Assembly (NCBI GenBank): GCA_038826135.1
Contig: JAWBON010000042.1
Coordinates: 1 to 10,131 of the forward strand
From: Candidatus Odinarchaeota archaeon
GTDB lineage: Archaea; Asgardarchaeota; Odinarchaeia; Odinarchaeales; Odinarchaeaceae
Length of the DNA: 10,131 nucleotides
Direction: 5' to 3'
The translations under genes were made by a program, and so were the position numbers. This document shows, piece after piece, positions 7,428 through 8,252 of the stretch (positions are counted from its first letter, which is position 1; each line of letters begins with the position of its first letter). The notes under the pieces were generated by a model that ran no database searches, had not been told where the DNA came from, and saw only the letters and a program-made list of their open reading frames with translations.

Positions 7428-7439
7428 GAGATGAACACG

Positions 7440-7703
7440 ATGTGCGCGAGTTTCTGGGAGAGTACCCTGTCTAAGAATAATGTATTATCTATACTTGCTA
7501 AACGACAAGGTGTAATATTAGACGATGAACTTTACATGATACTTAAAAAAGACTATCCGGACCTATCATATAAGGAGCTTAATCGTATGCTTATGGAACT
7601 TGAGATACAAGGTCTAATATATGTCTCACAGATTACAAAAACTAAGAGAAGAGTGGAATTGGTTAAAGAAGGTCAAGAGTTTCTAGGAGTCGGTGAAGAT
7701 TAA
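7440..7703 (+). CDS. Small winged helix-turn-helix protein downstream of cdc48, function unknown
   Basis: The pattern helix-helix-(LSYKELNRMLMELEIQGLIYV)-beta wing (TKTKRRVELV) fits a wHTH fold, followed by the tail GQEFLGVGED. SD-like GGAGATGA (7427-7434) overlaps the cdc48 stop and favours ATG 7440; ATG 7431 is in frame and is the alternative. Confidence 0.8.
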   Translation: MCASFWESTLSKNNVLSILAKRQGVILDDELYMILKKDYPDLSYKELNRMLMELEIQGLIYVSQITKTKRRVELVKEGQEFLGVGED

Positions 7704-7765
7704 TATCGCAAAGATAAAGATTAAATATTAAACAGGTATTAGAACGAGTGTAAAAGGTGGTTGAC

Positions 7766-7927
7766 ATGCCGATAACCGATGCTGATAAAAAATATATTGC
7801 AGCCCACTCATTACTATACGTTAATGTATGTAGAAAGTGTGGTGCTCGTAATCCTTTGAATAATAAAAAATGCAGGCGCTGCAAGTCTCCAGTTTTACGA
7901 CCTAAGAAAAGAGAAATAGGAAAGTAA
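7766..7927 (+). CDS. rpl40e: 50S ribosomal protein L40e (eL40), 53 aa; not in the ORF track
   Basis: My translation: MPITDADKKYIAAHSLLYVNVCRKCGARNPLNNKKCRRCKSPVLRPKKREIGK*. Contains the CRKCGARNP...CRRC...LRPKK signature; SD AGGTGG at 7755-7760. It is stand-alone, with no ubiquitin fusion. Confidence 0.95.
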   Translation: MPITDADKKYIAAHSLLYVNVCRKCGARNPLNNKKCRRCKSPVLRPKKREIGK

Positions 7928-7974
7928 ACTTTAACATGAACCTGTAGCCTGAACTTTAAGCAGCCGCTAACGCA

Positions 7975-7984
7975 TTTCTTTTTT
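7975..7984 (+). terminator. Putative oligo-T terminator after rpl40e
   Basis: TTTCTTTTTT about 50 nt after the rpl40e stop and immediately before the tRNA promoter. Archaeal intrinsic termination occurs at U-tracts. Confidence 0.4.
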
Positions 7985-7998
7985 AAAATCTTATATAA
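7985..7998 (+). promoter_or_regulatory. BRE/TATA promoter of tRNA-Val
   Basis: AAAATC followed by TTATATAA (7991-7998), ending 28 nt upstream of tRNA base 1. Confidence 0.6.
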
Positions 7999-8071
7999 AC
8001 TACTTAACAATATTATATGTTAGGTTGGGCGGGTGGTCTAGGGGTTATGACGCCGCCCTCACACGGCGGAG

Positions 8072-8094
8072 ATTAAAACTGATTTAAACCGCAA
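8072..8094 (+). other. tRNA intron A (23 nt) at position 45/46
   Basis: BHB-like motif: exon GCGG (40-43) pairs with CCGC 8089-8092; 5' bulge AG^A; 3' bulge AA^N; inner stem TT-A-AAA(CTGA)TTT-A-AA. Confidence 0.7.
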
Positions 8095-8117
8095 ATAAGC
8101 TTTTAAACTCAGCGGAA
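8095..8117 (+). other. tRNA intron B (23 nt), in tandem at the 3' splice junction of intron A
   Basis: BHB motif: CCGC 8089-8092 pairs with GCGG 8112-8115; bulges AA^A (8093-8095) and AA^T (8116-8118); closing pairs T8096-A8111 and A8088-T8119. Confidence 0.7.
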
Positions 8118-8184
8118 TTCGGGGGTTCGAAACCCTCCCCGCCCACCATAAAAACTAAAATATTAAAATGTCAGCGATACTATA

Positions 8185-8199
8185 CAAAAAATTTAATAA
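8185..8199 (+). promoter_or_regulatory. Putative BRE/TATA promoter of glnA
   Basis: CAAAAAA followed by TTTAATAA (8192-8199), about 55 nt upstream of the ATG. SD-like GATGTGAT at 8242-8249. Confidence 0.45.
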
Positions 8200-8252
8200 T
8201 CCCCTCATTGTTAAATACTCGTATTAATGCAGCTCTTTAGTGATGTGATGCT

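Follow-up and report, generated by a model that had tools for sequence, protein, structure and literature searches.

The tRNA-Val(CAC) gene of an Odinarchaeia (Asgard) hot-spring archaeon is interrupted by a 46-nt insert that probably consists of two abutting protein-spliced introns of the bulge-helix-bulge (BHB) type, here called A and B, which share a single pairing strand and of which B would be removed before A. This reading starts from what can be seen directly in the data, namely the geometry of the insert, the conservation of that geometry, the canonical tRNA that is left once both introns are taken out, and the presence of EndA and RtcB genes in the same genome.

The gene lies at positions 8027-8148 of the window, by which we mean the whole 10,131-nt stretch of DNA that was analysed (contig C42 of a 1.26 Mb genome with 38% G+C that is 93% complete), and the insert occupies 8072-8117, between tRNA positions 45 and 46 (Table 1). 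Rfam model RF00005 matches 8027-8145 with 49.2 bits and places a 47-nt insertion in the variable region; ARAGORN, run on the unspliced window, does not call the tRNA-Val(CAC) gene. A small winged-helix-like ORF is found on one side of the tRNA and glnA on the other, within a wider neighbourhood of housekeeping genes for a class II aminoacyl-tRNA synthetase, TruD, PTH2, EF-1beta and Cdc48. Exon 1, which ends in GCGG (8066-8069) followed by AG, is identical across the four congeners compared, and joining it to exon 2 gives a predicted mature junction of GGCGGAG followed directly by TTCGGGGG. The spliced product is a 76-nt tRNA-Val(CAC) that ARAGORN folds as a cloverleaf with a 5-nt variable loop, AGUUC, in 4/4 species of the genus, which agrees with the product proposed in the initial annotation of this DNA. 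The features expected if the insert were kept as a class II tRNA arm are absent, as the anticodon CAC specifies Val, not Leu, Ser or Tyr, a retained insert would make a variable region of 51 nt against the 10-24 nt of class II tRNAs, and the conserved bases are those of the splice motifs.

Table 1. Features of the interrupted tRNA-Val(CAC) gene, in window positions; within a bulge, a slash marks the predicted cut.
Feature	Positions	Strand	Description and basis
Promoter-like A/T block	7975-7999	+	TTCTTTTTTAAAA then CTTATATAAA; 28-52 nt upstream of the mature 5' end
Exon 1	8027-8071	+	tRNA positions 1-45: acceptor, D arm, anticodon arm with CAC, variable-loop A44 G45; RF00005 alignment
Exon strand GCGG	8066-8069	+	tRNA 40-43; 3' strand of the anticodon stem and 5' strand of the predicted central helix of A
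Predicted intron A, 23 nt	8072-8094	+	5' bulge AG/A; 3' end CCGC+AA; strict BHB scan
Shared strand CCGC	8089-8092	+	Predicted 3' helix strand of A and 5' helix strand of B
Predicted intron B, 23 nt	8095-8117	+	5' bulge AA/A; 3' end GCGG+AA; strict BHB scan
GCGG of intron B	8112-8115	+	Predicted 3' helix strand of B; invariant in four species
Exon 2	8118-8148	+	tRNA 46-76: variable-loop UUC, T arm, acceptor 3' strand, A73, encoded CCA

The division of the insert follows from a strict BHB rule: the central helix must be paired at 4/4 positions, and both of its strands must stop 2 nt short of a cut, which places every cut between the second and third bases of a 3-nt bulge. When every pair of cut sites was scanned under this rule, the only tRNA-compatible BHBs in the region were those with cuts at 8071/8072 and 8094/8095, which delimit A, and at 8094/8095 and 8117/8118, which delimit B; no strict BHB spans the 46 nt as a single intron, its end strands being GCGG and GCGG, which pair at 2/4 positions. 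The 5' cut of B is the same phosphodiester as the 3' cut of A, and the CCGC that precedes it pairs 4/4 by Watson-Crick rules with either the exon GCGG or that of B. The scan bears out two claims of the initial annotation, that no single BHB fits the insert and that it splits into A and B with a central CCGC usable by both, the latter in 4/4 species. The cut rule puts the start of B exactly at the end of A, the insertion point at the DNA level being ambiguous by up to 2 nt. Within the motifs, the inner stem of A (8073-8078 with 8083-8088) has 5/6 pairs and that of B is weak in the window genome (T:A, A.C, A:T, G:C; two mismatches, 3/5 pairs). The outer helices are only 1 bp each, which makes both motifs relaxed and not full hBHBh', the H, B and h' elements being good and the outer helix h being 1 bp. 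Relaxed BHB motifs are common among non-canonical introns.

Brute-force BHB excision judged by ARAGORN accepted far too many false products, and a strict cloverleaf template was used instead. Allowing one to three excisions, the template search returned one good solution, B then A, in that order only. An alternative two-step route in the window genome, which takes out 13 nt and then 33 nt through A/U- and G:U-rich helices to leave a variable loop AGAUC, was rejected because the congeners do not keep its TTTT strand. In 20,000 shuffles of the insert, any tandem route appeared in 0.75-1% and a single strict BHB in ~1.3%, so the window genome alone (p~0.01) is suggestive, not decisive; the statistical weight comes from the recurrence of the same route in three diverged congeners.

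A different way to remove the insert would be as one 46-nt intron in a single round by a broad-specificity EndA, with the 5' site (helix, AGA bulge and the hairpin of A) and the 3' site (helix and AAT bulge) serving as separate relaxed half-motifs and the middle site never being used. Heterotetramer-type EndAs do cut relaxed motifs of the hBH, HBh' and BHL kinds (PMC4090602, PMC4033280), the host has at least two EndA genes and, by hand reading of Pro(GGG), introns with only 3/4 helix pairs, and the outer helices are weak here. However, beyond the poor match of the end strands, both half-motifs need the same CCGC and thus cannot coexist, either helix would bring the middle bulge (8093-8095) into register with a second active site, and CCGC keeps its 4+2 register relative to the middle cut in 4/4 species, which a single intron does not require. 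We consider this single-round removal unlikely, and two introns with B removed first the best-supported reading.

The comparison within the genus rests on four sequences, that of the window genome and orthologues from three other species; scans of metagenomes and species representatives with the exact 5' exon gave no new orthologues, returning only two known congeners and the intron-less Val(CAC) genes of other archaea. Apart from one T-loop base, the four species have identical exons, and their flanks are only 63-73% alike, a disparity that argues for purifying selection. The invariant part of the insert consists of CCGC, GCGG and a few adjacent bases, and the bulge bases and loops vary through both substitutions and indels, with intron A measuring 23, 24, 20 and 21 nt and intron B 23, 22, 21 and 22 nt. 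The 23 + 23 nt symmetry in which the initial annotation saw meaning is therefore a coincidence of the host genome, the congeners having 24+22, 20+21 and 21+22, and the AA with which both introns end in the window genome is not conserved either, being AT, AT and AG in A and TG in all three congeners in B. What the congeners do keep of intron A is its termini, ATT... at the start and ...AACCGCA at the end. Applied to each species separately, the strict rule finds in 4/4 cases no single motif and exactly one two-step route, with B first.

The inner stem of B is a clean 5 bp in two of the congeners, G001 and G002 (TAAGC:GCTTA, 5/5), and in the third, G003, a G:C pair is replaced by A:U in a compensatory change, alongside a change of C:G to U:G. 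This covariation is thin, with one pair changed on both sides among four sequences and 128/500 shuffles scoring as high, and the two key central helices never vary among the four species, so what supports them is conservation and not covariation. The CCA and the promoter-like block are also conserved in the genus; direct reading of the 60-nt upstream stretches shows the block to be related to a promoter-like element, TCTTTTTCAAAA, present upstream in 4/4 congeners, and the block is a candidate tRNA promoter.

These comparisons bear on the possibility that the gene is decaying or unused, its insert never being correctly removed and GUG codons being read by tRNA-Val(UAC). Such a fate would fit the degraded inner stem of B in the host genome, the presence of tRNA-Val(UAC) and Val(GAC) genes, and the failure of ARAGORN to recognize the unspliced gene. 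It sits poorly with identical exons between diverged flanks, invariant splice-motif strands and a conserved CCA and promoter-like block, and no second Val(CAC) gene was found in the 93%-complete host genome or in the congeners, so that we regard decay as highly improbable.

In the two-intron reading, the order of removal would be set by how the strands of the primary transcript pair. There are two CCGC strands (tRNA 27-30 and the end of A) and two GCGG strands (tRNA 40-43 and the end of B). In the primary transcript, the cloverleaf would hold the exon GCGG in the anticodon stem, leaving the CCGC of A to pair with the GCGG of B, which would thereby borrow its 5' helix strand from A without having a 5' exon strand of its own. 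EndA would then cut at 8094/8095 and 8117/8118, and RtcB would ligate A to exon 2. With B removed, CCGC could pair only with the exon GCGG, the anticodon stem opening as predicted for the other 45/46 introns of the host, and the intermediate, which would resemble the Ala(GGC) and Val(UAC) precursors, would lose A through cuts at 8071/8072 and after 8094, the final ligation giving the mature tRNA. Were A cut first, B would have GCGG on either side of it and could form no BHB, a dead end that had already been foreseen; its GCGG could pair only with tRNA 27-30, for which the cuts fall inside the anticodon loop (pair 8058/8117). That splicing occurs, that it follows this order and that it passes through a ligated intermediate are all predictions made from the sequence.

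Energy calculations agree with this order. In a nearest-neighbour model at 37-60 C, the conformer with the cloverleaf and the B helix is more stable than the A-helix conformers by 5-10 kcal/mol; at 70 C, with the tRNA body held fixed, the B helix has a pairing probability of 0.70 and the A helix one of 0.02. As the B-helix conformer is the favoured one, B should be cut first, in keeping with the earlier suggestion that the folded anticodon stem favours this route; the unconstrained MFE fold of the transcript is not a cloverleaf and was left out as evidence. The helix of A, both of its 3-nt bulges and its 1-bp outer helix can already be drawn before B is removed. This makes the A motif formally complete from the outset, and the order would depend on which of the competing conformers prevails, with no absolute block to A. 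The initial annotation had called the B-then-A order obligatory: it is the only strict route in four species, but the order comes from geometry and, given the complete A motif, we infer a preference enforced by fold competition. A, which is transcribed before B, may also be cut co-transcriptionally.

The same three cut sites might be used in no strict order, either because exon 1 joined to A is recut before ligation, so that RtcB joins the exons directly, or because A-first products are tolerated and degraded. After cutting of B, the halves would be held together by the acceptor, D and T arms, and the 5' site of A (helix, AGA bulge and inner stem) is intact in the 5' fragment, so that no ligated intermediate would be needed; the formally complete A motif points the same way for a relaxed order. 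The energetics, on the other side, favour the B helix first, and a route lacking the ligated intermediate relies on the cut sites and the shared strand of the stepwise model, from which computation does not separate it. We judge processing of this kind to be distinctly unlikely.

Both enzymes on which stepwise removal of B and A would depend are encoded in the host genome. The EndA catalytic domain (PF01974) has three matches, at C72:2-247, C48:1-135 and C45:5827-6087, two of them at contig ends and so either one gene broken by assembly or two paralogues; three matches on three contigs, two possibly from one gene, amount to at least two EndA-family genes. A complement of at least two is that expected for a heteromeric enzyme with broad specificity. 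The RtcB ligase match scores 495 bits. The RtcB gene, at C16:2586-5357, is a single 995-codon open frame whose Pfam match breaks off at model position 50 and resumes at position 49 ~470 codons later, an interruption suggestive of an intein.

Introns are widespread in the tRNA genes of the host, with inserts in 23 of the 29 found by Rfam; given that only 29 tRNAs were detected at all, the most disrupted of these genes escape Rfam. The single introns solved are 14-31 nt long, and ten tRNAs carry one in the variable region, which is thus a hot spot (43/44 to 47/48). The strict BHB rule gives no solution for Tyr GTA (C7:2725-2868), Pro GGG (C8:28780-28891) and some Ser and Leu genes, whose introns seem to use relaxed motifs with 3/4 helix pairs, as is the case for Pro(GGG) when its sequence is read by hand. 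With relaxed motifs elsewhere in the host genome, a requirement for strict BHBs only is too severe.

Two other genes carry a single intron at 45/46, namely tRNA-Ala(GGC) (C11:12163-12261; 27 nt) and tRNA-Val(UAC) (C72:5244-5341; 25 nt), and in 4/4 species these introns follow the exon strand GCGG+AG and end in CCGC (CCGT in two congeners) plus 2 nt. They are like A in their insertion point, exon strand, CCGC end and need for opening of the anticodon stem, and differ from the A and B pair in that they are 25-27 nt long and stand alone, with only exon 2 after CCGC+2. Judged by these features, A is an ordinary 45/46 intron of the lineage. Intron A and the 3' part of the Ala(GGC) intron (..TTTAAACACCGCAA) are alike, which may reflect shared origin or convergence on the same helix.

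The introns of Val(CAC) differ between families of the same order. In the sister family (G005 and G006), the gene has one variable-region intron of 16-17 nt, at 43/44 or 45/46, and an additional 29-nt intron inside the anticodon, at 34/35; in more distant Asgard genomes and other archaea it is intron-less. The comparison of relatives for zero-, one- and two-intron states that the initial annotation had recommended thus yields two introns in the genus, one variable-region intron in the sister family and none in distant relatives. As B is unable to form its helix without the CCGC of A, A or an A-like intron came first, and this dependence, together with the single variable-region intron of the sister family, supports the suggestion that B was added at the 3' junction of A. 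Intron B looks like a later, genus-level addition on an older A-type intron. Regex searches of the host genome for relatives of B returned nothing convincing; a look-alike on contig C24 (GCGGAG/ATT ... TTTAAACACCGCAG/) reads through as ordinary coding sequence of the ThiD/PfkB kinase type and was dismissed as chance.

There is a small chance that B arrived as a 'piggyback' intron at precisely the position where the RNA of the older intron is cleaved and ligated, for example by mis-ligation of a free intron into the cleaved pre-tRNA, in a reverse-splicing-like step, and subsequent copying back into DNA. An intron gained in this way would survive only through pairing with the helix strand of its host intron. 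Such an origin, if true, would be a rare footprint of the arrival of a BHB intron, a process that the 2026 census of Asgard introns leaves open (bioRxiv 10.64898/2026.10.13.758758).

Nested multi-intron archaeal pre-tRNAs that require ordered splicing were already described in 2007-2009 (PMC8450103, PMC3728597, PMC3978253, citing Sugahara 2007 and Tocchini-Valentini 2009), and from this literature, as these later papers summarize it, ordered splicing of stacked BHB introns of the Thermoproteales type can be taken as established. According to the same summaries, the nested pre-tRNAs of Crenarchaeota/Thermoproteales resemble the present gene in having closely spaced BHB introns whose removal follows a fixed order and takes one pair of EndA cuts and one ligation per intron, and in that the flank of the inner intron is sequence of the other intron. 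At least two BHB introns with one productive order are likewise found here, under the strict rule and in four species. The present case differs from the summarized Thermoproteales type, in which the BHB of the last intron arises only after the others have been removed, in that the helix and bulges of A are already in the primary transcript, A being out-competed, not absent. It differs further in that the order would arise from one strand having two pairings that exclude each other and from the wrong order leading nowhere, and in that the introns abut with no exon base between them, the 3' cut of A coinciding with the 5' cut of B. The lineage is another one too, the host being an Asgard archaeon and not a member of Thermoproteales. 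Zero spacing, a coincident splice site and the use of one strand for both central helices with the two motifs there from the outset were not found in the literature searched, which covers Sugahara 2007 and Tocchini-Valentini 2009 through summaries, and the 2026 Asgard intron census makes no mention of Odinarchaeia or of tandem introns (bioRxiv 10.64898/2026.10.13.758758). The initial annotation knew of no described case of the shared-strand geometry, and within that literature this stands, but the ordered splicing of nested introns as such had been described. The tRNA-Val(CAC) layout is an unusual variant of known ordered multi-intron tRNA splicing and leaves the picture of BHB splicing unchanged.

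Stacked introns with an order of removal also occur as twintrons, as in the group II/III introns of Euglena plastids, where an inner intron is removed before the outer one can be spliced; their chemistry and machinery are unrelated to those of A and B, and the inner intron sits within the outer. A further comparison is offered by the nuclear pre-tRNAs of Cyanidioschyzon merolae, in which the order of removal tracks motif stability and the anticodon-arm motif is removed last, just as A, whose motif requires an opened anticodon stem, is predicted to be last here; the C. merolae introns are, unlike A and B, separate and independently folding, with either order productive (PMC3728597).

If confirmed, the tRNA-Val(CAC) gene would provide a compact natural test case for the choice of EndA between mutually exclusive RNA folds, in which a single 4-nt strand is used first by one intron and then by the other, with a dead-end RNA as the outcome of a wrong choice. 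It would also be a dated example of an intron stacked on an intron, with a genus-specific B over an older A-type intron. For annotation, the lesson is that inserts in the variable region which match no BHB may consist of two introns stacked together, a point relevant to intron-rich Asgard genomes; in a recent census, only 21% of missed variable-region inserts form canonical motifs.

Two minor observations concern the flanks of the tRNA gene. Upstream, a 115-codon ORF on the minus strand (7663-8010) both overlaps the end of the 7431-7703 ORF and reaches into the tRNA promoter region; it matches no Pfam family and is probably not a gene. Downstream, a block of sequence ACAAAAAATTTAATAATC at 8184-8201, 52-69 nt upstream of the glnA start codon (8253), is kept downstream of the tRNA in 4/4 congeners and is probably a TATA-like promoter of glnA.
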